Positions 5,298 to 25,503 of a stretch of DNA of 25,503 nt are shown here, piece after piece. The position numbers and the translations under genes were made by a program. Source of the stretch: Caedibacter taeniospiralis (GTDB lineage: Bacteria; Pseudomonadota; Gammaproteobacteria; Francisellales; Francisellaceae); contig NZ_PGGB02000006.1 of assembly GCF_002803295.2 (NCBI RefSeq), forward strand, positions 65,519-91,021, written 5' to 3'. The stretch's first letter is position 1. Each line of letters starts with the position of its first letter. The notes below the pieces were generated by a model. It was not told the DNA's origin and made no database searches. It was given only the letters and a program-made list of their open reading frames with translations.

Positions 5298-5537
5298 TTA
5301 TAATTTATCCTGGTCCAAAGGAGGGTTGTTTTTTACGTTTTTTTCGAGAAAATTAATGAAGTCTGCAGTTGAAAGCCTTGTTGTATTTTTGTTTAGCCTG
5401 TAGGTGACTTTAGCAAGTGCTACTCGCTCAGAAACAGCACTCATAATAAACTGATTCATTGAAACACCCTCGGATGCAGCGATCTGTTTTAGATCATCAT
5501 AAATTGAATTAGGTAATCGTAACGCAAAATTAGCCAT
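5298..5537 (-). CDS. Ribbon-helix-helix antitoxin (HicB-C-terminal/Arc-like type), partner of the upstream PIN toxin
   Basis: The protein is 79 aa. The N-terminus FALRLPNSIYDDLKQIAASEGVSMNQFIMSAV is a typical RHH strand-helix-helix. Its start overlaps the PIN gene stop by 8 nt (5530-5537). Confidence 0.7.
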   Translation of the reverse strand: MANFALRLPNSIYDDLKQIAASEGVSMNQFIMSAVSERVALAKVTYRLNKNTTRLSTADFINFLEKNVKNNPPLDQDKL

Positions 5538-5943
5538 GGTTGATCTCCTTTAACACGTTTAAAAATTGCTGGGGTGTGACAACTTCAAGATTGAAACTTT
5601 TTGCACCCTTGAAGTCCTTCACGTTGTGTGTGATAAGATAGTCCGCTGGTGCGTTTATGGCGGCTTCTAAGACCATCTCATCTTTGTCATCACAGCCAGT
5701 GGGGCGGTATCTGTATGCAATGAGTATTTTTTCAGAACAGTCTATGTATGATCGCAAAAATTGATCAATAAAATAATGATCAAACTGTCTTTTTAAAACC
5801 GCTTCATATTCGCATATTAGACTGACAGATATGCACGTTATTACGGTCTCTTGTGCAAGAATAGTGGTCAGTATTTTATAGGATGCCCCATTTTTCGAGT
5901 AGAGTGCACTGTAGACAACATTTGTATCTAAGACTACTTTCAT
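5530..5943 (-). CDS. PIN-domain toxin (TIGR00305-like putative TA toxin)
   Basis: VVLDTNVV provides the first acidic residue, and DDKDEMVLEAAINAPADYLITHNVKDF has the PIN C-terminal acidic pattern. I moved the start to ATG 5943 (MKVVLDTN), which has GGAG 12 nt upstream. The 28-aa extension in the ORF track to 6024 is unsupported. Confidence 0.75.
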   Translation of the reverse strand: MKVVLDTNVVYSALYSKNGASYKILTTILAQETVITCISVSLICEYEAVLKRQFDHYFIDQFLRSYIDCSEKILIAYRYRPTGCDDKDEMVLEAAINAPADYLITHNVKDFKGAKSFNLEVVTPQQFLNVLKEINHG

Positions 5944-6116
5944 TATTTCAGCAGGCTCCTGTTGGGTTTTAATGGGCATTATAGATAAGTTTTCCGTTTG
6001 TTTCAATATTGTATGTAATATCATTCTAGTTTTAACAATGCTTATAAAAATATAAAACGTGGCAAGTGTTTGCAGCTAAATATGTAAAATGATTTTAACC
6101 TTGCAGTAGCAATGGT

Positions 6117-13166: not shown

Positions 13167-13442
13167 TTACATTCCAAAAATACCGGCATGACTGCCAATG
13201 TCTATGAGTGTAATACTGTTACTATCGACTTTGATGTATAAAAGCAGATCATCAGGTTTTAAATGCAGCTCCCTAATCCCTTTTAAATTGCCTTTTAGCT
13301 CATGATCTTTGTATTTCCTGGGAATTGGTTTTTCGCTGATCAGAAGTGCAATAACGATTCTAAGTTCTTGCAGGACAGCTTTATTAGCACGGTATTTTTT
13401 CAGAGACTTAATGAATCGCTTCTTCTGAATGATTTCAAGCAT
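13167..13442 (-). CDS. Type II toxin, RelE/ParE superfamily, YafQ-like mRNA interferase
   Basis: The protein is 91 aa. KYKDHELKGNLKGIRELHLKPDDLLLYIKVD...IDIGSHAGIF matches the YafQ-type pattern (DH-L-G...RE-H--PD-LL-Y...GSH). It overlaps the upstream antitoxin by 8 nt. Confidence 0.8.
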   Translation of the reverse strand: MLEIIQKKRFIKSLKKYRANKAVLQELRIVIALLISEKPIPRKYKDHELKGNLKGIRELHLKPDDLLLYIKVDSNSITLIDIGSHAGIFGM

Positions 13443-13662
13443 TTTTAATTATCTCATCAAGTTCTTTTAAAAAGTTTTCGCCACTACAGTGCACATCACC
13501 ATTTGTCTCTAATAAAGATTTCTCTAGCGGGGAAAGTGTCTTTCTGTAAGCGTCAGCAAGCAATAGTCTGGCATATGAGCTTGTCGATAGTCCTGCTTCT
13601 TTTGCGCTAGCCTGAAGGCTCTTGGCCAAGTTGTCTTCTAACATCACTTGTATTTTCTGCAT
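13435..13662 (-). CDS. Ribbon-helix-helix antitoxin, partner of the YafQ-like toxin
   Basis: KIQVMLEDNLAKSLQASAKEAGLSTSSYARLLLADAY is RHH-like. The preferred start is ATG 13662, preceded by AAGGTG. The ATGATG at 13683 is an alternative start. Confidence 0.65.
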   Translation of the reverse strand: MQKIQVMLEDNLAKSLQASAKEAGLSTSSYARLLLADAYRKTLSPLEKSLLETNGDVHCSGENFLKELDEIIKNA

Positions 13663-13674
13663 AAAATCACCTTT

Positions 13675-13697
13675 AATCATCATGATTCACAATGATT
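13675..13697. promoter_or_regulatory. Candidate TA operator: palindrome AATCAT-C-ATGATT plus a third ATGATT half-site
   Basis: AATCAT at 13675-13680 and ATGATT at 13682-13687 form an inverted repeat, and ATGATT recurs at 13692-13697. The site is immediately upstream of the antitoxin RBS. RHH antitoxins typically autoregulate through such repeats. Confidence 0.3.
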
Positions 13698-15292: not shown

Positions 15293-16663
15293 TCATATAA
15301 CTTTCTCACGTATTTTCCAATAACCTCTTGTGCCGCTAATCCTCTGAATATAACCTGCTTCTCTAAGTTGCTTAATATTTTTTTCGATAGCTGAGGTAGT
15401 TATTGAAAGTATTTTGGATATTTGTGCTGCTGAAATTTTAGGGTTATTTTTCATTTCGGTTAGTATCTTAAATTTAGTATTACCCAACTCATTACCCAAC
15501 TCATTACCCAACTCATTACCCAACTCATTACCCAACTCATTACCTAAGTTGAGTGCTTTGTGCAACTCAAGCAGAATACCTCCAGACCTTTCTGTAATTT
15601 TAGGGCTTGGCATGTATGCACGCTTGCAAGCATCGGCAATTTTCTCAATACCACGTCCCCATGAGTCGATATAACCTGCTCGGTAGCATACTTCCGCGAT
15701 CAAGGGATTGCGAGGGATAGATTCATGGGTTTTAAATAATTGCTCAATGGATAATTCTTCAGGCAATATCCCTGCATTCCATAGTGTCAGATGGCTATCA
15801 TAGACTTTCATCTGCGTCATACTGCCAAGGTAATTACGGTGAACTAGTGCATTTAGTAGCATTTCACGCAGAGCAGTCACAGGATACTCCAGCTCTTCAA
15901 TACGCTTGATCCCTTCAAATCGAACAGGCTTGATCAGAAATTTCTTTTCTAATTGCTCTATTACGTCATACAGTATCTGAATCAGATTGCCTTCACATAC
16001 CTCCTGAAAGCGCAGGTCGACACCTGTTTTGCCGAAACGACCTATTTTTACAAATAGGTTAGGGTAGAACTCGCCAGGGTCTTTACCAAATAAAATGATA
16101 GCTGCACGCGTTATACCATGTCGTGTGATTAAATGTAGTTTTTTTAATACTTCTCTAGGCGTTAATTTGCTTAGATCTGGAAGACGCCCTGCCAAAGCCG
16201 CATCAGACTTAAAACTCGCAATGGTTGCTTCATCAATGTCGTCTAAACTTGCATTTTCCTCAATGGTGCTATCCCATGTTACGCCCATCTTATGCATTAA
16301 AAAATCAGTTAAAGCATTTCCTTTGAGTTCTTGCTTTGTACTTCCTGAGCGCCAGTAGTATGCCCCTCGCAGTGAAATGGGGACGCCTGAGGGTTCAACA
16401 ATAATTTCAAGATATGCTTTTTCTTCCTGAATAAGCAGATTAATTTTTGGCATTAAACCAAGATGGTCACGAATTTTATTCGGTAGCTCTTCCAGAAGCC
16501 TTTTTGCATTTGATAGTCCAATGACTTTTCCATAGTCGTCAACACCAATGTATATTTTTCCACCTTGTGCATTGGCAAAGCCACATATCCATTTTAAATA
16601 CTCATCTTGCCAGGAAGATTTCCATTCAATGTTTTGTGATTCAGAATGCTTAGAGGTTTTCAT
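15293..16663 (-). CDS. AlbA_2 (Schlafen-like divergent AAA) + HATPase_c_4-like + C-terminal winged-HTH protein; putative ATP-dependent nucleic-acid-binding protein of unknown function
   Basis: The N-terminus ESQNIEWKSSW...FANAQGGKIYIGVDDYGKVIGL is the AlbA_2 pattern. LREMLLNALVHRNY...WGRGIEKI is the HATPase_c_4 pattern. The C-terminal KISAAQISKILSITTSAIEKNIKQLREAGYI is HTH-like. The start ATG overlaps the murC stop (ATGA at 16660-16663). Confidence 0.8.
   Translation of the reverse strand: MKTSKHSESQNIEWKSSWQDEYLKWICGFANAQGGKIYIGVDDYGKVIGLSNAKRLLEELPNKIRDHLGLMPKINLLIQEEKAYLEIIVEPSGVPISLRGAYYWRSGSTKQELKGNALTDFLMHKMGVTWDSTIEENASLDDIDEATIASFKSDAALAGRLPDLSKLTPREVLKKLHLITRHGITRAAIILFGKDPGEFYPNLFVKIGRFGKTGVDLRFQEVCEGNLIQILYDVIEQLEKKFLIKPVRFEGIKRIEELEYPVTALREMLLNALVHRNYLGSMTQMKVYDSHLTLWNAGILPEELSIEQLFKTHESIPRNPLIAEVCYRAGYIDSWGRGIEKIADACKRAYMPSPKITERSGGILLELHKALNLGNELGNELGNELGNELGNELGNTKFKILTEMKNNPKISAAQISKILSITTSAIEKNIKQLREAGYIQRISGTRGYWKIREKVI
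15479..15550. repeat. Tandem 12-nt repeat ATTACCCAACTC x5 perfect plus one degenerate copy (9/12)
   Basis: Counted directly from the sequence. It is in frame in the minus-strand CDS and encodes NLGN(ELGN)5, which lies between the HATPase_c_4-like region and the C-terminal HTH. Confidence 0.95.
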
Positions 16664-18045: not shown

Positions 18046-18232
18046 AATGGTGATTTACTGCGCTAAATCAATACTTGGCAGTAGTTTAATACAAGTAAAG
18101 GCAAAAATATTGGGGAATTTGGTTTTAATTGGGTTAAGGATTTAGCCATTCTTTACACGTGTGATAGGTGCATATCGAAAATTTAGCAGGTAAAATGCTC
18201 GCTAATGTCAGCGGTTGACTGATTATGGTTTA

Positions 18233-19300
18233 ATGACAAGAAGAATAAAAAATTTTTCTCTTTGGATACTAATTAAATTACTGTCTTTTTTTGCAAAAAG
18301 ATCAAAGAGGAGCAAAGAGCATATATTGGTGTTATCTAATACCGCCATGGGTGATACGCTATGGGCAACCGCGGCGCTGCAATATCTGCACGAAACCTCT
18401 CCCAAGACTCGTGTTACCGTGCTGTCATCTGTGATTGGAGGACAGGCTCTACTTAATAACCCTTACATTTATGAGCTCTGGATTGATCAAAAGTCATTCT
18501 CTGGCAAAGTTAGGAACTTCATTGCTATTTTGCGAACGCCATTCTCTGAGACTTTTAACTTTCACACCTCGAAGCGTTTTATTGCTTATGTTGGATATCT
18601 TGGAAGCCCAGGTAGATATTTTGGTATTTATCCTGAGTGTAAAGCTAGCAGTATTCTAACCGGAGGTATCGATTCACCTGAATTTGAAACCTTACATAAA
18701 ATACACATGAGAATAAGGCTGTTAGCAAAGTATTTAAACCTAAACTTACCCAGTCCAGACAATCAATACTATCTTTCAGTTTATCCGCAACAAAAAGATC
18801 AAGAAAAAGCTAAAGTTTTGATAGGCTATGCTCAAAGTAAAAAATATATATTCATTCAGCCAGGGGCGAGTTTTAAGGAAAAACAATGGCATCCTGATTT
18901 TTTTAGACAGGTAGTCATATGGCTTGACCAAAATGAGTTTTACTGTGTTTTTGCAGGTAATCAAAGAGAATGTGAACTGATAGAAACGATTACTAAAGGT
19001 TGTAAAAATGTACTGAAGCTAGGCAGTCATAACACGGTAATGGAGCTTGCAGCAGTCATTGATCTGTGTGAACTAGTTGTCACCAATGACACTGGTCCTA
19101 TGCATATTGCTGAAGCACTCAATAAAGCCATGCTATGCTTCTTTTGGGAGAATCACGTAATCCCTGCAAAGCCTATTACGAAGAATCGGTTAAAAATCTA
19201 TGAAAGTAAAAAGACTTCAGATTACATCATAGAGCCAGAACCAGAAGAGGTTATTGCTGATATACAAAGCTTTTTAAGCGAGCGGCAAAAGCTTTATTAA
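18233..19300 (+). CDS. Glycosyltransferase family 9 (LPS heptosyltransferase-like)
   Basis: ILVLSNTAMGDTLWATAALQYL and the C-terminal LVVTNDTGPMHIAEAL are hallmark GT9 motifs. I moved the start to ATG 18233; the ORF track start at 18215 is a TTG. Confidence 0.8.
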   Translation: MTRRIKNFSLWILIKLLSFFAKRSKRSKEHILVLSNTAMGDTLWATAALQYLHETSPKTRVTVLSSVIGGQALLNNPYIYELWIDQKSFSGKVRNFIAILRTPFSETFNFHTSKRFIAYVGYLGSPGRYFGIYPECKASSILTGGIDSPEFETLHKIHMRIRLLAKYLNLNLPSPDNQYYLSVYPQQKDQEKAKVLIGYAQSKKYIFIQPGASFKEKQWHPDFFRQVVIWLDQNEFYCVFAGNQRECELIETITKGCKNVLKLGSHNTVMELAAVIDLCELVVTNDTGPMHIAEALNKAMLCFFWENHVIPAKPITKNRLKIYESKKTSDYIIEPEPEEVIADIQSFLSERQKLY

Positions 19301-20326
19301 ACTTTCAATGTGCGTAGACCAGTCTAGTTTCTGTTTACTAATGTAATCATCATCCAGTTGCCATTGTTTTTCTTTGGCTGCTGTCAACGAATTTACAATA
19401 TGATAAGCATTTGGTTGTGCGAGCAACATGCTGTTTTGTGAATTTACCAGCACTTTCGCGCCAACGTTTCCTGATAAGATAACGGGTCTACCGATTTGTA
19501 GTGCTTCAACCACAACTAAGCCAAATGGCTCATAGATTGAGGGGACAAGCACAACATCGGTCGCGGCATAGTATTCTTCAATATTTTCAACGACACCAAA
19601 ATGCTTAGCATTCGCGGGGAGCGGGAGTTTACAGGTTTTACCAAAGATTATTAAATAATAAGGTGTTCCCAGTACTTCAATTGCTTTAATGGCCTCGGGT
19701 ACTCCTTTTCTACTATCTTCTGTTCCTGCTATGAATACGAGGTAAGCATCCTGTGGCAGCCCAAGCTTTGCTCTAAACTCAGCCTTTTTATCACAGCTAG
19801 TGAAGCTGAAATGATTAAGATCAACAGGTGGAAATAGCATCGTGATTTTCGCAGCTACATTCAGTCCATAGCTATTGATTTCATCGACCATTAGTGGTGA
19901 GTGGGCAATAATGCCCTTAGCATTTTTATAGTGCTGTTTCTCAAGAAAAATTTCAATACGATCATAAATGCCATTTTTCTTGCCCATTATGATATTGTGC
20001 TGTTGGTGTGTGCCTCCAACAATGGCAAGGGTCGGGTTAAAAATACGTGCAGTTGAAATATTAGGTGTATTTTGATTTCTGGTTTTTAGAAACACTTTCA
20101 TGGCAAATAAGATATATGTGAGAAAGCGCGGAAATTTACTCAGGATTTTACTTTGGTGAACAGTGATATTTTGATTGTTGGCAAACATTTTACCGTCGTA
20201 CTTCAGACAATAGACATTAATTGTGTAGTAAACGGATAACCGTTCTGCCAGTTCACAAATATAGCGTTCCATGCCGCCACCAAGTTTGATGCTGGGAGTG
20301 ATTATATTTATATTATTTCGCTTCAT
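19274..20326 (-). CDS. Glycosyltransferase family 4 (GT-B, retaining)
   Basis: It has the N-terminal GGGMERYICELAERL and the C-terminal EX7E region PSIYEPFGLVVVEAL. It is the last gene of the minus-strand LPS operon, and its 3' end overlaps the GT9 3' end by 27 nt. Confidence 0.85.
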   Translation of the reverse strand: MKRNNINIITPSIKLGGGMERYICELAERLSVYYTINVYCLKYDGKMFANNQNITVHQSKILSKFPRFLTYILFAMKVFLKTRNQNTPNISTARIFNPTLAIVGGTHQQHNIIMGKKNGIYDRIEIFLEKQHYKNAKGIIAHSPLMVDEINSYGLNVAAKITMLFPPVDLNHFSFTSCDKKAEFRAKLGLPQDAYLVFIAGTEDSRKGVPEAIKAIEVLGTPYYLIIFGKTCKLPLPANAKHFGVVENIEEYYAATDVVLVPSIYEPFGLVVVEALQIGRPVILSGNVGAKVLVNSQNSMLLAQPNAYHIVNSLTAAKEKQWQLDDDYISKQKLDWSTHIESLIKLLPLA

Positions 20327-21620
20327 TTTTTGTCTTGGTTTGAGTCGAGCTGCTTATGCCGATTGTAAGTAGGAGAGCGCAAAATAGGAATAAATTTTTT
20401 GCGGAAGTGTGTTCTACAAGACCCAACACAAAAGTATTTCCAATGATTCCAAAAGCAATAGCTATGGAAAGTACACCTAAAAAAGAGTTGTTGTTAGCTG
20501 TTTTTTTGCAAGCCAATAGAAAGGTAATTACAAACATAGCAAAAAGAACTAAACCGATTATCCCACTTTCATAAAAGACCGCCAAAAACTGTGGCTCGTC
20601 ATGGAAATAACTAAAGACTTTTTGATGGTTTTCAAATTCTTGGCGACCTATAATTTCAGGAGCATGATGGTTAGCTAAAAATTGCTGGTACACTTTATTT
20701 CCATATCCAGTCCCAAAGAGAATGGAGGTATGCTCAAAAAATATAGGTGCTCGAGTTTCGATTATTGCAACTCGTCCTGAGGAAAAGTCGTTACCTAAAA
20801 AACTTTGGTCAACTTTGCCGTGAACTGTAGGGTTAAAATGGTAAATCACGGAGATAGTGGCTACCAAGATAACAGTAACCACCGCTATGAAAAGCAACAT
20901 TTTTTTAACTGAGACAGCCCTGTATGTGTAGATAAGAAACAAAATTAGCTCCGCTGTAATAGTCAAAAATGATCCTCTTCCACCTGATAATATGACAATG
21001 CTATAAATAGCAATGCTTAAAAAAATCACATAATACAAATACCATTTTTGTTTAAATATCGATACCGACGAAAGTAAGCATGGAAAAAGTAATGTTATGG
21101 GGTAAACATAACCGTATCTGAAGGCTAAATAAAGTGGCTCTGGGACGCCCTGAACTAGCAAGGGTGCAAGGTATGACTTAAAGGGCATGATGAGACACAA
21201 CATTGTAAGGGTGACAATCAAAATGATTAATATATTTTTTGCAACATCTTGTTTTAAGATAAAGAGTGTAAATAATGCAATGTATAGAATAATGGCATAG
21301 CGAATGTCTTCATAAACAGCCTGTATTGAATCGCTTCGCATATTGTTGTAGGTAAAAAAATATGAGGAGATAAATAAAAAAAGAACATAGGCTAAAAAAG
21401 TGATGTACAAATTCTTATTCTTTTCCCAGCTTGAGTGCAGAAGGTGTGTTATGTTAGATGTTGAGCCATAAAGTACCAGCACTATTAGTGATAGCGCAAA
21501 TGCACTATAAGCACCTATGGTAAGGAATGCCGTATTGTGATAACTAAAATAACCACAAAACATAAGTAGCAAGAAAAACCAAATTAATAAACTAAAAGCT
21601 GGTTTAATATGTTTTTTCAT
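20313..21620 (-). CDS. O-antigen ligase family (WaaL/Wzy_C-like) polytopic membrane protein
   Basis: It has at least 10 hydrophobic segments. LSGGRGSFLTI and HDEPQFLAVFYESGIIGL match the Wzy_C pattern (H--yL--l-E-GiiG). It is embedded between glycosyltransferase genes. Confidence 0.8.
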   Translation of the reverse strand: MKKHIKPAFSLLIWFFLLLMFCGYFSYHNTAFLTIGAYSAFALSLIVLVLYGSTSNITHLLHSSWEKNKNLYITFLAYVLFLFISSYFFTYNNMRSDSIQAVYEDIRYAIILYIALFTLFILKQDVAKNILIILIVTLTMLCLIMPFKSYLAPLLVQGVPEPLYLAFRYGYVYPITLLFPCLLSSVSIFKQKWYLYYVIFLSIAIYSIVILSGGRGSFLTITAELILFLIYTYRAVSVKKMLLFIAVVTVILVATISVIYHFNPTVHGKVDQSFLGNDFSSGRVAIIETRAPIFFEHTSILFGTGYGNKVYQQFLANHHAPEIIGRQEFENHQKVFSYFHDEPQFLAVFYESGIIGLVLFAMFVITFLLACKKTANNNSFLGVLSIAIAFGIIGNTFVLGLVEHTSAKNLFLFCALLLTIGISSSTQTKTKNEAK

Positions 21621-22735
21621 TGATCTATGATTTCCTTTAGTTTTAGTCGTGCAACTTCTGTGCTAAATTTCATAATTTGATTTTCATCAAAACCGTAAAT
21701 AACTTTCTGATGGAGGAAACTATTAATTGTTTTGGCAAGGGTAGGTGCGTCATTTATTGGAACAAGCCACCTTGTCAAGTTATCTGAAAGAATTTCTCTG
21801 GGACCTGAGGCACAGTCAGTACTGATTATTGGCGTTCCACAAATTAGTGATTCAACTAGTACATTGCCAAAACCTTCAAAATCCGAACTTAAAACAAAAA
21901 CTTCAGCCTGCTTAAACCATGGATAAGGATTCTGGTGAAATGGAATGATATGGATTTTATGACCTTTAGGATGCTTGGCTACCATCTCGGATAATTGTTG
22001 ATTTGGTTGAGTAATCATCACGAGATCAATATCACAAGTAAGCTGTGCAAAAGCCTCCAATAAGATATCTTGTCTTTTTTGCGCAAGATCGAAGCGTGCA
22101 ACATGCAAAATGTAAGGCTGCTTGATCGGTGGTAGATATTCAGAAGCTTTTTCCCTTATGTGGTTAAAATCAAAAAAATTATAGAGAATATGCAGTTTTT
22201 GGGGTTTAACTCTAAATAATTCTGTTAAAGATGTGGCGGCTCCTTGTGATACCGAAATCACATTTCTATTGTTGTAATACTTATAAACTTTGTGCCTAAG
22301 CTTAACTGCCTTTTTTTGAGCCTTAGCTAAGAGGTTTTTATATGGAATTGTGTAGTCAAAATGCAGGTAATAAAATGTTTTTGCCTCTAACTCTCTGTTA
22401 AGCCATGATCTGACGGTTAAAAAGTTAGAAAAAATACACTTGAAGTGGTGGGTTTTATCAAGTCTATGGATTGCGTGAGCATACCATTTCTCGTATAGAT
22501 ATTTAGATCTCAACCAGTTGGGCACTTTGGCATCATGTAAGATAATATCTTCTGGTAGTTCAAATTCAATATTGGTCCTTAAAGTCAATATATGCACGTT
22601 GTAGTCCATAGCGCGAAGCAGGTTGGTCAAGTTTACTAATACACGTTCTGAGCCACCAATAACCAGCGTGTGACTAAGCAGTAAAACGTTCTTTGATGTT
22701 GTAACTTGTGTGGTCAGTGTATTTTGCTTATTCAT
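21617..22735 (-). CDS. Glycosyltransferase family 4
   Basis: It has the N-terminal LVIGGSERVLVNLTNLL and the C-terminal EX7E region SSDFEGFGNVLVESL. There are 4-nt ATGA-type overlaps at both ends. Confidence 0.85.
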   Translation of the reverse strand: MNKQNTLTTQVTTSKNVLLLSHTLVIGGSERVLVNLTNLLRAMDYNVHILTLRTNIEFELPEDIILHDAKVPNWLRSKYLYEKWYAHAIHRLDKTHHFKCIFSNFLTVRSWLNRELEAKTFYYLHFDYTIPYKNLLAKAQKKAVKLRHKVYKYYNNRNVISVSQGAATSLTELFRVKPQKLHILYNFFDFNHIREKASEYLPPIKQPYILHVARFDLAQKRQDILLEAFAQLTCDIDLVMITQPNQQLSEMVAKHPKGHKIHIIPFHQNPYPWFKQAEVFVLSSDFEGFGNVLVESLICGTPIISTDCASGPREILSDNLTRWLVPINDAPTLAKTINSFLHQKVIYGFDENQIMKFSTEVARLKLKEIIDQ

Positions 22736-23574
22736 GGACTAGTTTGGTCTCCAAGAATGCTTTCCATCGCACATTTTCTATTGCTTGTTTTAACCTCATT
22801 CAGTAGTTTAAGATTGCCTTCTTCTTGTGAGCGATCTGCTTCTTTATGCCAAAGATGCAAAACTGCTGTGGCAAAATAGCCTGATTTTCTTCTGATGCCT
22901 TTATTGATGAGGCGAATCATCAAATCAGAGTCTTCATAACCCCAGCCTGAAATTTTTTCTTCAAAGCCGTGCACCGTCAATAAATCTTGCCGCCAAAACG
23001 CCATATTGCAACCTTTGGCCTTTTGCCATGCGCAACAGTGCTTGTATCGCGCTTTACTGGCTAAATTAAACGTAAGTAACGTATGCCAGCGATTAATGTG
23101 TTTTAAAAACCGGTGCCACAGCCAGTACAATAGGCTTTTGGTTGAAACATCAGTTTGGGTGTTAAGGAGATAAGTAGTATATTTACTGTTTAAAAGAACA
23201 CGGTTGCCTGCGACGTAATATTCAGACTCCGCTAATAAGCGATGATTGTGTATGAAGTTTGGTCTAGAAATGCAGTCACCATCAATAAAAATCAGGTAAT
23301 TGCCTGCGGCAGCAGCAATCCCCATATTGCGAGATCTTGATAGGCGAAACCCTTTATCTTCTTGCCATAAATGCTGTAACGGAAATTTTGCTTGAGTTTT
23401 AAACGCGTTGATCATTTCTTTGGTTTCATTAGTCGAACCATCATCAACAATGATCACTTCAAAGTTTTTGTCGGTTTGATTATTTAATGAGGTCAATACA
23501 AGTCGAAGCGCTTCTGGCCAGTTGTAAGTGGAGACAACGACAGAAATAAGCCCCTGGTAAATATTACTTTGCAT
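22732..23574 (-). CDS. Glycosyltransferase family 2 with a galactosyltransferase-like C-terminal segment
   Basis: ISVVVSTYNWPEALRLVLTSLNNQTDKNFEVIIVDDGSTNET, FIDGDC (a DxD-like motif) and GWGYEDSDLMIRL (resembling Glyco_transf_7C) are present. Confidence 0.85.
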   Translation of the reverse strand: MQSNIYQGLISVVVSTYNWPEALRLVLTSLNNQTDKNFEVIIVDDGSTNETKEMINAFKTQAKFPLQHLWQEDKGFRLSRSRNMGIAAAAGNYLIFIDGDCISRPNFIHNHRLLAESEYYVAGNRVLLNSKYTTYLLNTQTDVSTKSLLYWLWHRFLKHINRWHTLLTFNLASKARYKHCCAWQKAKGCNMAFWRQDLLTVHGFEEKISGWGYEDSDLMIRLINKGIRRKSGYFATAVLHLWHKEADRSQEEGNLKLLNEVKTSNRKCAMESILGDQTSP

Positions 23575-24328
23575 TCTGCTGTTTTTCCCACAATTTCACA
23601 TATTTAAAATATGAACCATAGGCAGAAAGCTTGGCAATTAAGTACCCCCTTGAACCATCTAAAAAGCCCAAGCGGAAGATAAATCCACGCAAAAAAGTCC
23701 AGTGTTTATGAAAACAGGCGCTAATGAGTGATGTTTTTTTACTTTTTTGCCACAGAATGGTCGAAGTGCCATCACTGTAGTCGTTCATTTTTTTTAAAGA
23801 ACTGGCAACACTGTCCTGTGAGTGATGAATAAGCTCCCCTGTCAAGCTTCCTGCGTGTTTCTTTGAAACATCCAGTTTGGCATGGACAATATCATGTGTC
23901 CATTGATGTTTTGTGTGATCAAACAGACGGACGATCCAGTCCTTGCCCCAGTCACCATGGCAAATCATCTTACCTAAAAAGAACGACCTGCGATGCATTT
24001 TATAAAAGCTATACCTGGGATGTTCCAGTGCATCCTTAATGGATTTTGCTAACTCGGGAGTAACTTCTTCATCAGCGTCAAGGACAAGTCCCCAGCTCGT
24101 AGTAAGCTTGGAAATACCAAAGTGTTTTTGTGGTCCATCTCCTGGCCAGTGTCTTTCGATGATGTTAGCACCATATCTTCTAGCAATCTCAATCGTTTTA
24201 TCCGTGCTGCCAGAATCCACAACAATGATTTCATCCGCCCATTTAATAGATTCAAGGCAACGCGCGATATTTTTTTCTTCGTTTTTAGTAATAATGACAA
24301 CGCCAAGCGTATTATTGTGTTTGGGCAT
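23564..24328 (-). CDS. Glycosyltransferase family 2 (KdtX/WaaE-like LPS core glycosyltransferase)
   Basis: LGVVIITKNEEKNIARCLESIKWADEIIVVDSGSTDKT and LDADEE (DxD) are present. I chose ATG 24328 as the start. The ORF track start at 24343 is a TTG immediately preceded by an in-frame TGA. Confidence 0.85.
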   Translation of the reverse strand: MPKHNNTLGVVIITKNEEKNIARCLESIKWADEIIVVDSGSTDKTIEIARRYGANIIERHWPGDGPQKHFGISKLTTSWGLVLDADEEVTPELAKSIKDALEHPRYSFYKMHRRSFFLGKMICHGDWGKDWIVRLFDHTKHQWTHDIVHAKLDVSKKHAGSLTGELIHHSQDSVASSLKKMNDYSDGTSTILWQKSKKTSLISACFHKHWTFLRGFIFRLGFLDGSRGYLIAKLSAYGSYFKYVKLWEKQQNAK

Positions 24329-24370
24329 AGAGAATAGTCGCAAATTTCAATGCTGCGCATGATAGCATAT

Positions 24371-24433
24371 TGAATGTTGAATGTTGAATGTTGAATGTTG
24401 AATGTTGAATGTTGAATGTTGAATGTTGAATTC
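24371..24433. repeat. Heptanucleotide microsatellite TGAATGT x8 perfect plus a 5/7 partial copy (ACATTCA/TTCAACA on the minus strand)
   Basis: Counted directly from the sequence. It lies in the 124-nt gap between the halogenase-like gene stop (24453) and the GT2 ATG (24328), and its proximal end is 42 nt from the ATG. Confidence 0.95.
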
Positions 24434-24452
24434 AAAATTGAGACTTAAGCAG

Positions 24453-25503
24453 CTAGTTTGATTGTCCAAGTGTTGTGCACACTTTGGCAAGAAGGCTTAA
24501 TTTGCGTCTGGCATCGGTGGCGTAGTCATTGGTTTCATCCCAGGCGTAACCTGCCAAAATGGCGCAAATTTTTGCTTTAATTTCTTCGGGTTGTCTGTTA
24601 CTGAAAATAATTTGCTGCAGCTCGCCTGTATACCAAGTGCGCACATAGGCCTTAAACGTATTCACTCCTTTTTGTAAAGGTTTGGCGAAGCTTTCTTGCC
24701 AATCAACCTCTTTGCCTTGAAGCTCTAGATCAAGTGTTTCAGCCGCAAGAACTGCAGATTTTAAGGCAAGGGTTACCCCAGATGAGAAAACGGGATCCAG
24801 GAATTCGCCTGCGTTTCCAAGAAGCGCAAAACCCTTACCGTAAAGTGTGCTGACATCCTGGGCGTACCCTGTGATTTTTCGCACGGGGCATGTCAGGCTT
24901 ATGTCTTTTAAGATGGTATACAGATTTGGGGTCTGTTGAATCAGCTCCATGAGTTGGTCTTCGGGGGTTAATTGAGCTTTTGCGAGTAAATGCGGCTCGC
25001 CAACCACGCCGATAGAGTATTTGGTATCGTTAAGTGGGATAAGCCAAAACCATATATCAGCATGTTTTGGATGGACGCTAATAAGGATTTTATTTTGATC
25101 AAAAAGCCGCCGATCAAGTTTCGCACTAATGTGGGTGAAAATAGACATGCGTGGCGGAAATTCACTTGGACGGTTCAGTTTAAGCAGATTAGGTAACACT
25201 CGCGCAAAACCACTGGCATCTAATACAAATCGCGCTTGATAACTATGATGGTTGTTGGTTTCATCACAGGTGATCACTGTATGCAGTTTGTCAGTAAACT
25301 CAAGGTTGGTGACGCGCTGTTGGTAGATGATTGTAGCGCCAAATTCTTGTGCTTTATCGGCTAGTATTTTGTCAAAAATGGCACGCTCCACTTGAAAAGT
25401 GCTGTTAAATCCACCGCCAAATTTCTGGCTAAAATCAAACTCAGTGTAGTGATCATGGTATGCAAAAGCCGCACCATTTTTAAATTGAAAGCCTGCCTCT
25501 TTA
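24453..25503 (-). CDS. FAD-dependent oxidoreductase of the flavin-dependent halogenase/geranylgeranyl-reductase-like family, 5'-truncated by the window edge
   Basis: The frame is open from the window end: upstream of the listed GTG it reads KEAGFQFKNGAAFAYHDHYTEFDFSQKFGGGFNSTFQ. The WxWxIP motif WFWLIP lies at 25035-25052, and FLDPVFSSGV is an FxxPxxSxG motif. The N-terminal GxGxxG lies outside the window. Confidence 0.75.
   Translation of the reverse strand, partial: KEAGFQFKNGAAFAYHDHYTEFDFSQKFGGGFNSTFQVERAIFDKILADKAQEFGATIIYQQRVTNLEFTDKLHTVITCDETNNHHSYQARFVLDASGFARVLPNLLKLNRPSEFPPRMSIFTHISAKLDRRLFDQNKILISVHPKHADIWFWLIPLNDTKYSIGVVGEPHLLAKAQLTPEDQLMELIQQTPNLYTILKDISLTCPVRKITGYAQDVSTLYGKGFALLGNAGEFLDPVFSSGVTLALKSAVLAAETLDLELQGKEVDWQESFAKPLQKGVNTFKAYVRTWYTGELQQIIFSNRQPEEIKAKICAILAGYAWDETNDYATDARRKLSLLAKVCTTLGQSN

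Follow-up and report, generated by a model that had tools for sequence, protein, structure and literature searches.

The DNA analysed here (the window: 25,503 nt of Caedibacter taeniospiralis, contig NZ_PGGB02000006.1) carries a tandem array of a 7-bp unit directly in front of a five-gene operon of lipopolysaccharide (LPS) glycosyltransferase and ligase genes, the first of which encodes a family-2 glycosyltransferase (GT2). The array is a slippage-prone, positionally conserved and length-polymorphic repeat, in a lineage where none had been described. It is considered here a genuine, conserved and hypervariable repeat lying in a predicted promoter, while an effect of its copy number on LPS expression is plausible but unproven. 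The explanation favoured below, tentatively and at a little under an even chance, is that the array would tune the LPS operon through the DNA upstream of its promoter, giving a graded (rheostat-like) output of the kind described for sabA and nadA.

Tandem Repeats Finder detects in the window a repeat of period 7, with 8.9 copies, 100% matches and no indels at 24370-24431. This agrees with the perfect 7-bp microsatellite claimed in the original prediction, and shuffled sequences do not reproduce it: a pattern of two consecutive units gives eight matches in the window against 0.52 expected, and none of 100 shuffles reached eight. A pattern search found no isolated copies of the two-unit motif elsewhere in the window. 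The elements of the intergenic region are the following, given with the method by which they were located.

24370..24431, minus strand: tandem array of a heptanucleotide, 8.9 copies, read as CAACATT on the coding strand and as TTGAATG on the plus strand (Tandem Repeats Finder)
24431..24439, minus strand: A/T-rich 5′ flank AATTTTGAA, a candidate UP-like element whose distance to the core promoter is set by copy number (sequence)
24359..24367, minus strand: predicted extended -10 box TGcTATCAT (TG 24367-24366, TATCAT 24364-24359), abutting the array (promoter scan and cross-genus alignment)
24382..24387, minus strand: -35-like hexamer TCAACA in the second-to-last repeat unit (promoter scan, 9/12 matches, 17-nt spacer)
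24347..24349, minus strand: in-frame TGA closing the GT2 frame upstream of its start (read from the sequence)
24461..24490, minus strand: weak promoter-like match TTGCCA-18-GACAAT at the end of the upstream gene (promoter scan, 9/12 matches)

Read on the coding strand, the region runs from the stop codon TAG (24455-24453) of a halogenase-like gene through 21 nt ending in AATTTTGAA, then (TTCAACA)n and TATGCTATCATGCGCAGCATTGAAATTTGCGACTATTCTCT, to the GT2 ATG at 24328. The array begins 21 nt past the stop of the halogenase-like gene and leaves a gap to the GT2 ATG of 41 nt in the coordinates of Tandem Repeats Finder or 42 nt in those of the original prediction. Checking on the sequence returned the layout first proposed, with the TAG at 24455-24453, the TGA at 24349-24347, TATCAT at 24364-24359 and TCAACA separated from it by a 17-nt spacer. 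It also bore out the statement that the repeat is not translated into GT2, the array lying upstream of both the in-frame TGA (24349-24347) and the ATG (24328-24326). A TTG start at 24343 was considered for GT2 and rejected, as no recorded gene has that product and the ATG version is on record.

Relatives of the GT2 gene were drawn from one genome per species and from public assemblies, and about 20 further loci, from Caedibacter and Cysteiniphilum, proved to have orthologous arrays of 3-16 copies upstream of GT2. The unit is CAACATC in Cysteiniphilum, with the exception of C. halobium, which has CAACATT. The alleles are listed below, first those with the C. taeniospiralis gene order and the unit CAACATT, then those of Cysteiniphilum.

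Window: 8 units
L001: 3 units
L202: 3 units plus one mutated unit, CAAGATT
L206, L207 and L208 (three metagenomes): 16 units each
L210: 15 units
Cysteiniphilum sp. JM-1: 16.1 copies
C. litorale: 14.1 copies
C. marinum: 13.1 copies
Cysteiniphilum metagenome-assembled genome (MAG): 9.3 copies
C. halobium: 7.7 copies
Cysteiniphilum sp. 19S12-1: 5.9 copies
Cysteiniphilum MAG-148: 5.1 copies
L205 (Cysteiniphilum): 4.1 copies
L217 (Cysteiniphilum): 3 full units
L216 (Cysteiniphilum): at least 8 units and an N gap

Array purity is 100% in all loci except L202 (95% matches), and the longest array reaches 16.4 units. Copy number differs between almost identical backgrounds: across 2159 nt, L206 (16 units) and L210 (15 units) show a single mismatch and a single 7-bp gap, and across 2265 nt, L216 (at least 8 units) and L217 (3 units) show no mismatch. 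The window, with 8 units, is 97-98% identical to L001 and L202, which carry 3-unit alleles. Between Caedibacter and Cysteiniphilum the flanking coding DNA is only about 73% identical, and the array is kept nonetheless. Counting units in related assemblies had been proposed with the original prediction; once done, it gave a variation from 3 to 16 that extends to near-identical backgrounds. Two features of contingency loci are thereby found, namely a perfect repeat fit for slippage and a copy number that differs between close relatives.

Among the loci examined, the array is absent from Facilibium, Fangia, Fastidiosibacter, two more distant relatives and L213. The latter (1530-1686) has an 81%-identical GT2, a divergent yhhN, the Cysteiniphilum gene order and a TGcTATGAT box, and no heptamer array. 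In about 155 kb of sequence from the family, a single further long perfect array was seen, with a 12-bp unit, in the window's open reading frame (ORF) 15293-16663. The affiliation given at first, a Legionellales-like locus, was the sole factual error of the original prediction: the GT2 protein shows full identity with WP_100550758.1 from Caedibacter taeniospiralis, a species of the order Thiotrichales and the Francisella-related family Fastidiosibacteraceae.

A metagenome scan with CAACATYCAACATYCAACATYCAA added no further alleles: none of the at least 120 loci shares flanks with the window or with L002. The median GC content of these loci is 0.57 (window: 0.41), and long stop-free frames contain most of them. 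CAACAT(C/T) arrays of 3-15 units are thus present in at least 120 unrelated, mostly high-GC metagenome contigs (L082-L201), and the unit itself is therefore not lineage-specific.

The array also leaves marks on sequence records. It breaks assemblies: three k=31 Logan contigs (L204, L209 and L211) stop after exactly 30 nt of repeat, and the L216 scaffold has its N gap within the array (about 120-220), which bears on the trust to be placed in assembled copy numbers. These breaks are also the only signs, and indirect ones, of a frequent and reversible length change within clonal populations. In addition, gene callers run through the stop-free repeat and yield GT2 proteins of 324-343 aa with false N-terminal extensions made of SNIQHPT repeats. 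Such extensions, whose occurrence depends on copy number modulo 3, are found in P0002, P0080, P0083 and P0084 (from L205, C. marinum, JM-1 and L217). Whatever its function, the array is a ready strain-typing marker, and a trap for assemblers and gene callers through contig breaks, N gaps and falsely extended GT2 proteins.

The position of the array with respect to the predicted promoter restricts what copy number can do. The box TnTGnTATnAT is invariant in 7/7 aligned array-to-ATG sequences of both genera, array-less L213 included, and its flanks diverge. Five nt separate the array from the -10 hexamer, and upstream it continues through the -35 position. As read from the sequence, TCAACA recurs each 7 nt, at the same distance from the -10 at any copy number of at least 2; at 17 nt from the -10 it is kept in all alleles examined, including the CAA/AAA junction variants and the mutated unit of L202. 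Since the -35 recurs every 7 bp, copy number cannot alter the -35/-10 spacing. A 6-bp inverted repeat seen in the RNA fold, TTCAAT N17 ATTGAA (24346-24374, minus strand), flanks the -10 box and the predicted start site, and its left arm is the end of the array.

These observations dispose of a classical ON/OFF switch, by which a change in spacer length or a frameshift in GT2 would turn expression on or off. Spacer and frameshift mechanisms are the commonest for LPS genes in Haemophilus and Neisseria (PMC2651432). However, the array stands upstream of the -10, not between -35 and -10 as in the promoter-spacer type (hifA/B, opc, porA), and the spacer is 17 nt at any copy number. Nor is the array of the translational frameshift type (lic/lgt), as the TGA at 24349-24347 and the ATG at 24328 leave it upstream of both and outside the coding frame. 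With spacing and frame both insensitive to copy number, classical ON/OFF switching is excluded, and the sequence refutes it to the point where next to no likelihood is left; this leaves room only for an effect through upstream DNA or at the RNA level. The promoter placement suggested originally found support in the overlap of the array with a predicted sigma-70-like promoter whose extended -10 is conserved in two genera.

What copy number may still change is the DNA farther upstream. According to the favoured explanation, slipped-strand expansion and contraction would take place at an array set within the upstream half of the promoter of an LPS-core/O-antigen-ligase-type operon. The five genes are predicted to be transcribed from the conserved extended -10 (TGcTATCAT) adjoining the array, with the repeat providing a weak predicted -35, TCAACA, at a 17-nt spacer. 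Copy number would then set the DNA present at about -40 to -90, either repeat or the AATTTTGAA flank with the end of the upstream gene, and could thereby tune contacts with the RNA-polymerase alpha subunit, with an UP-like element or with a regulator. If the start site is assumed to lie 7 nt after the -10, AATTTTGAA would be located at about -79 to -87 in the window and at -44 to -52 in the 3-unit L001. In an allele of 3 units, the stretch from about -44 to -70, the binding region of alpha subunits at UP elements, would be occupied by AATTTTGAA and the end of the upstream gene; alleles of 8-16 units would shift this flank 35-91 bp further and put repeat DNA in its place.

The arrangement in Cysteiniphilum complicates this picture. 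There the order is halogenase-like gene, yhhN on the opposite strand, array, a spacer of about 55 nt and GT2. In C. taeniospiralis, spacer and yhhN are both gone, the array directly abuts the -10 box, and the changes on both sides stop exactly at the array borders. yhhN was lost twice beside the array, being wholly deleted in C. taeniospiralis and replaced after codon 19 in L216/L217, and the array was kept both times (compared were window 24432-24452 with L002 3139-3792, and L217 1-210). The possibility that the 55-nt spacer consists of decayed repeat units was rejected, local alignments being no better than those of shuffles (43-687 of 1000 as good).

Read on the other strand, the Cysteiniphilum -10 box is TATCAT (CATCAT in C. 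halobium) and faces yhhN. A promoter-like site directed toward yhhN, TTGACC-16-TATCAT in L002 (10/12 matches) and TTGACC-16-CATCAT in L005 (9/12), shares this box with the GT2 promoter of the opposite strand, and the yhhN ATG lies 10-14 nt past the far end of the array. The arrangement was seen at L002 3783-3990, in L005 and in other Cysteiniphilum loci. A transcript from this site would therefore contain the whole array, as most of the yhhN leader. The promoter scan of the window found no promoter-like site near the array on the strand opposite GT2, i.e. in the yhhN direction. The LPS operon may thus not be the array's only target, or not its original one.

Hence a serious rival to the expression dial: a relic or neutral variable-number tandem repeat, which would have arisen between yhhN and GT2 in an ancestor resembling Cysteiniphilum, perhaps as a piece of the yhhN leader or of a bidirectional promoter region, and would be renewed by slippage with no effect on LPS. 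This is a substantial possibility, if a somewhat doubtful one. It accounts for an array that is still present where yhhN is absent (window) or truncated (L216/L217), for the yhhN-directed promoter-like site that runs through the array in Cysteiniphilum and is missing from the window, for a core-promoter spacing that is insensitive to copy number, and for a range of 3-16 units with no visible constraint. L213 manages with no array, and the yhhN-sense RNA is strongly self-pairing (z -10.6 in L002 and -4.6 in L005). In addition, heptanucleotide repeats are reported to be the commonest class of long simple sequence repeats (SSRs) in many prokaryotic genomes, in earlier surveys to which PMC4679880 refers. 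Yet a neutral array would be expected to decay or be lost, and this one is pure (95% matches in L202) in every Caedibacter or Cysteiniphilum locus examined. Moreover, in C. taeniospiralis it outlasted deletions on both flanks and came to lie precisely at the position of a -35 for a conserved -10 box.

Several further points weigh against a graded effect on the LPS operon. Extended -10 promoters rely little on -35 and UP contacts, and the effect could be nil. The -35/-10 geometry is constant across copy numbers, and no helical phase is preferred among the unit counts observed, whose values of n mod 3 are scattered. The Cysteiniphilum array, beginning some 55 nt upstream of the -10, is too distant for a model of upstream contacts, and copy number there changes nothing within about 60 bp of the GT2 start site. 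As the array there lies in the predicted leader of the divergent yhhN, the link with LPS may be secondary. L213, which has the same gene order and -10 box and no array, indicates that the array is dispensable. Finally, the 3-4-unit alleles come from MAG or metagenome assemblies, in which repeat collapse could have shortened them; the isolate genomes (5.9-16.1 copies), the pair with 15 and 16 units and the k=31 contig L205 are free of this objection.

The two strands of the array differ sharply as RNA. The repeat RNA of the G/U strand pairs with itself through GAUGUU/AAUGUU wobble blocks, six pairs per unit and mostly G-U, and its fold reaches -52.5 kcal/mol in L002 (z -10.6, 16 units), with z -4.6 in L005. 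The regions folded were L002 3770-3957 minus, L005 3846-3910 minus and window 24365-24440 plus. The GT2-sense repeat RNA (C/A strand) contains no G and is unstructured: the array folds at -2 kcal/mol, and the intergenic region as a whole scores z +0.79. DNA hairpins were rejected as the cause of instability, since no fold forms on either strand as DNA (energies from 0 to -4.6 kcal/mol, z no stronger than -1.3).

A combination of the two faces may be envisaged, in which the DNA would set the LPS-core/ligase promoter, the opposite-strand RNA would form a yhhN leader hairpin scaled by copy number, and the element would be selectively maintained in the clade. Such a contingency element is unlikely. 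If it existed, one repeat would tune two divergent envelope-related genes, the Paramecium endosymbiont would have kept the array for the LPS operon alone, and the Francisella-related lineage would gain its first case of repeat-driven surface variation; what underlies LPS phase variation in that lineage is still called poorly understood (PMC9763628).

The strand asymmetry also bears on an action at the RNA level, of the hmw1A P2 or uspA2 type, in which the array would lie in a long leader or intercistronic spacer and alter the stability or translation of the GT2 mRNA. Read-through from the halogenase-like gene is conceivable, as the promoter scan found no terminator-like site between that gene and the array, and the promoter-like site at 24490-24461, if real, would place the array in a transcript leader. 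Precedents are the hmw1A heptamer array, transcribed as part of the 5′ untranslated region with a length inversely related to expression (PMC12721329), and the AGAT repeats of the uspA2 leader, as cited in PMC4679880. On the other hand, an hmw-like hairpin is impossible for a GT2-sense RNA as unstructured as that described above, and the upstream promoter match is at chance level, the scan having yielded two sites against a shuffle mean of 1.7. An Rfam search of the window gave no family matches. In Cysteiniphilum, moreover, the opposite-strand yhhN parts the halogenase-like gene from the array, so co-transcription is not conserved. Taken together, these points render an RNA-level action improbable.

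Alternatively, each TTCAACA or TCCAACA unit might be a half-site for a regulator or nucleoid protein whose occupancy would scale with copy number. The unit is nearly conserved between the genera (CAACATT versus CAACATC), the inverted TTCAAT N17 ATTGAA surrounds the -10 in the window, and there is a precedent in NadR, which binds the nadA TAAA tract itself with low affinity (PMC2791445). However, no candidate regulator is known, and the window lacks the isolated copies of the two-unit motif that were searched for. In the Francisella group a single promoter element of 7 bp is known, the PigR response element TGCTGTA (PMC4382096); it was tried and rejected, as it fits the unit at only 5/7 positions and in the wrong orientation. 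A binding-site array is accordingly even less probable than an effect on the mRNA.

The genes behind the array are listed below with their neighbours; domain assignments are from Pfam.

23564..24328, minus strand: gene 1, GT2, 254 aa (PF00535, E 2.6e-21)
22732..23574, minus strand: gene 2, family-2 glycosyltransferase with Glyco_transf_7C, 280 aa, 11-nt overlap with gene 1
21617..22735, minus strand: gene 3, GT4 glycosyltransferase, 372 aa, 4-nt overlap (PF00534/PF13439)
20313..21620, minus strand: gene 4, Wzy_C (O-antigen ligase family) membrane protein, 435 aa, 4-nt overlap (PF04932, E 3.9e-13)
19274..20326, minus strand: gene 5, GT4 glycosyltransferase, 350 aa, 14-nt overlap
18215..19300, plus strand: GT9 heptosyltransferase-like gene, convergent with gene 5
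24453..25503, minus strand: 3′ part of a Trp_halogenase-like FAD-dependent oxidoreductase gene, stop TAG 24455-24453, exiting the window (PF04820, E 8e-11)

The claim of a five-gene coupled operon is sustained by the overlaps of 11, 4, 4 and 14 nt, with the minus strand as coding strand. Its assignment to LPS glycosyltransferases and a ligase finds support in two GT2, two GT4 and one Wzy_C proteins and in the adjacent GT9. Homologues of gene 1 at about 50% identity bear the JGI name (heptosyl)LPS beta-1,4-glucosyltransferase. NCBIfam returned no equivalog at cut-off for the operon proteins, and 'LPS core/ligase-type cluster' appears a fair label on the strength of the domains. Beyond the operon lie the GT9 heptosyltransferase-like gene and then a Mur-ligase-family gene. 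The halogenase-like gene has full-length orthologues of 415 aa in L202 and L206.

The window has other features as well. A second perfect array, at 15479-15544 in ORF 15293-16663 (minus strand), has 5.5 copies of a 12-bp unit and encodes (LGNE)x6, the linker that joins the HATPase_c_4 domain of an SLFN_AlbA_2 protein to its winged-helix domain. In homologues from other phyla (71-75% identity) the corresponding position is occupied by 3-4 LGNx units, which points to a family-typical repetitive linker recently expanded in the window; the searched collection held no exact copy of this protein and no relative at 90% identity or above. Two toxin-antitoxin-like pairs are found on the minus strand, at 5298-6024 (a PIN_3 protein and a small RHH/HicB-like partner) and at 13167-13683 (a YafQ-family toxin and an overlapping 82-aa ORF with no Pfam match).

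What is known of repeat-driven contingency loci comes mainly from a few host-restricted pathogens, in the genera Haemophilus, Neisseria, Helicobacter, Campylobacter and Mycoplasma. In the literature on Cysteiniphilum and on C. taeniospiralis genomes no mention was found of such a repeat or of phase variation, and no paper was found linking Fastidiosibacteraceae with SSRs. The hosts of the array are an obligate endosymbiont of Paramecium, C. taeniospiralis, and Cysteiniphilum, which includes emerging pathogens of human wounds and a candidate pathogen of coral (PMC10228398, PMC12771372), and the genes behind it build the outer LPS. If copy number tunes these genes, the outcome would be a heritable, reversible surface variation toward hosts, grazers and phages.

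Among known systems, those closest in target are lic2A, lgtC and lex2 of Haemophilus influenzae and lgtA/C/D of Neisseria, LPS glycosyltransferase genes likewise diversified by repeat slippage (PMC2651432). In Helicobacter pylori, the G-repeat of hp0102 gives a graded output as a leader repeat of the mRNA targeted by the small RNA RepG (PMC8295292). The repeats of the lic, lgt and hp0102 genes are intragenic or in leaders, whereas the array of the window belongs neither to the frame nor, by prediction, to the mRNA. The TAACTGA heptamer direct repeats of Beggiatoaceae, Cyanobacteria and Bacteroidetes are also intergenic 7-bp repeats near start codons (PMC4679880). They form, however, dispersed families with hundreds of short sets per genome, in contrast with the single array described here, whose motif had no further occurrence in the window or in flanks of the related loci.

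The precedent cited in the original prediction, the (ATCTTTC)n arrays of hmw1A/hmw2A in non-typeable H. influenzae, shares with the window a 7-bp intergenic unit in front of an operon for a surface structure. In both, the repeat overlaps the -35, a predicted one in the window and that of the downstream promoter P1 in hmw, where copy number varies widely between strains (PMC8262952), as it does here between related loci. The unit sequences are unrelated, and the target is an adhesin in one case and an LPS glycosyltransferase/ligase operon in the other. In hmw, transcription starts at an active promoter upstream of the array, P2, and thus includes the array, which forms with a G-rich region a hairpin cut by RNase III (PMC12721329); the GT2-sense RNA of the window cannot fold in this way. 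The parallel thus stands for a 7-bp unit overlapping the predicted -35 and fails for the repeat-RNA hairpin, as the GT2 sense gives -2 kcal/mol (z +0.79) and only the opposite strand folds.

Two other systems offer models for a graded output. In H. pylori, the T-tract of sabA lies close to the promoter, beside the -35; it leaves the spacing unchanged and shifts the alignment of an UP-like element, with multiphasic output (PMC4081817). The same mechanism is proposed for the window, although the sabA tract is a homopolymer that moves in 1-bp steps with an experimentally shown effect, while the steps would be of 7 bp here and the effect is inferred. In Neisseria meningitidis, the TAAA tract of nadA, at about -55 to -85, changes the spacing between distal and proximal elements and gives low, medium or high output (PMC2791445). 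It resembles the Cysteiniphilum arrangement, with an array that begins some 55 nt upstream of the -10; NadR operators and a site for integration host factor (IHF) flank this tract of 4-bp units, while none are known around the 7-bp-unit array. In sum, hmw1A/hmw2A would be the nearest formal analogue, and in presumed function the array of the window appears to resemble sabA and that of Cysteiniphilum nadA.

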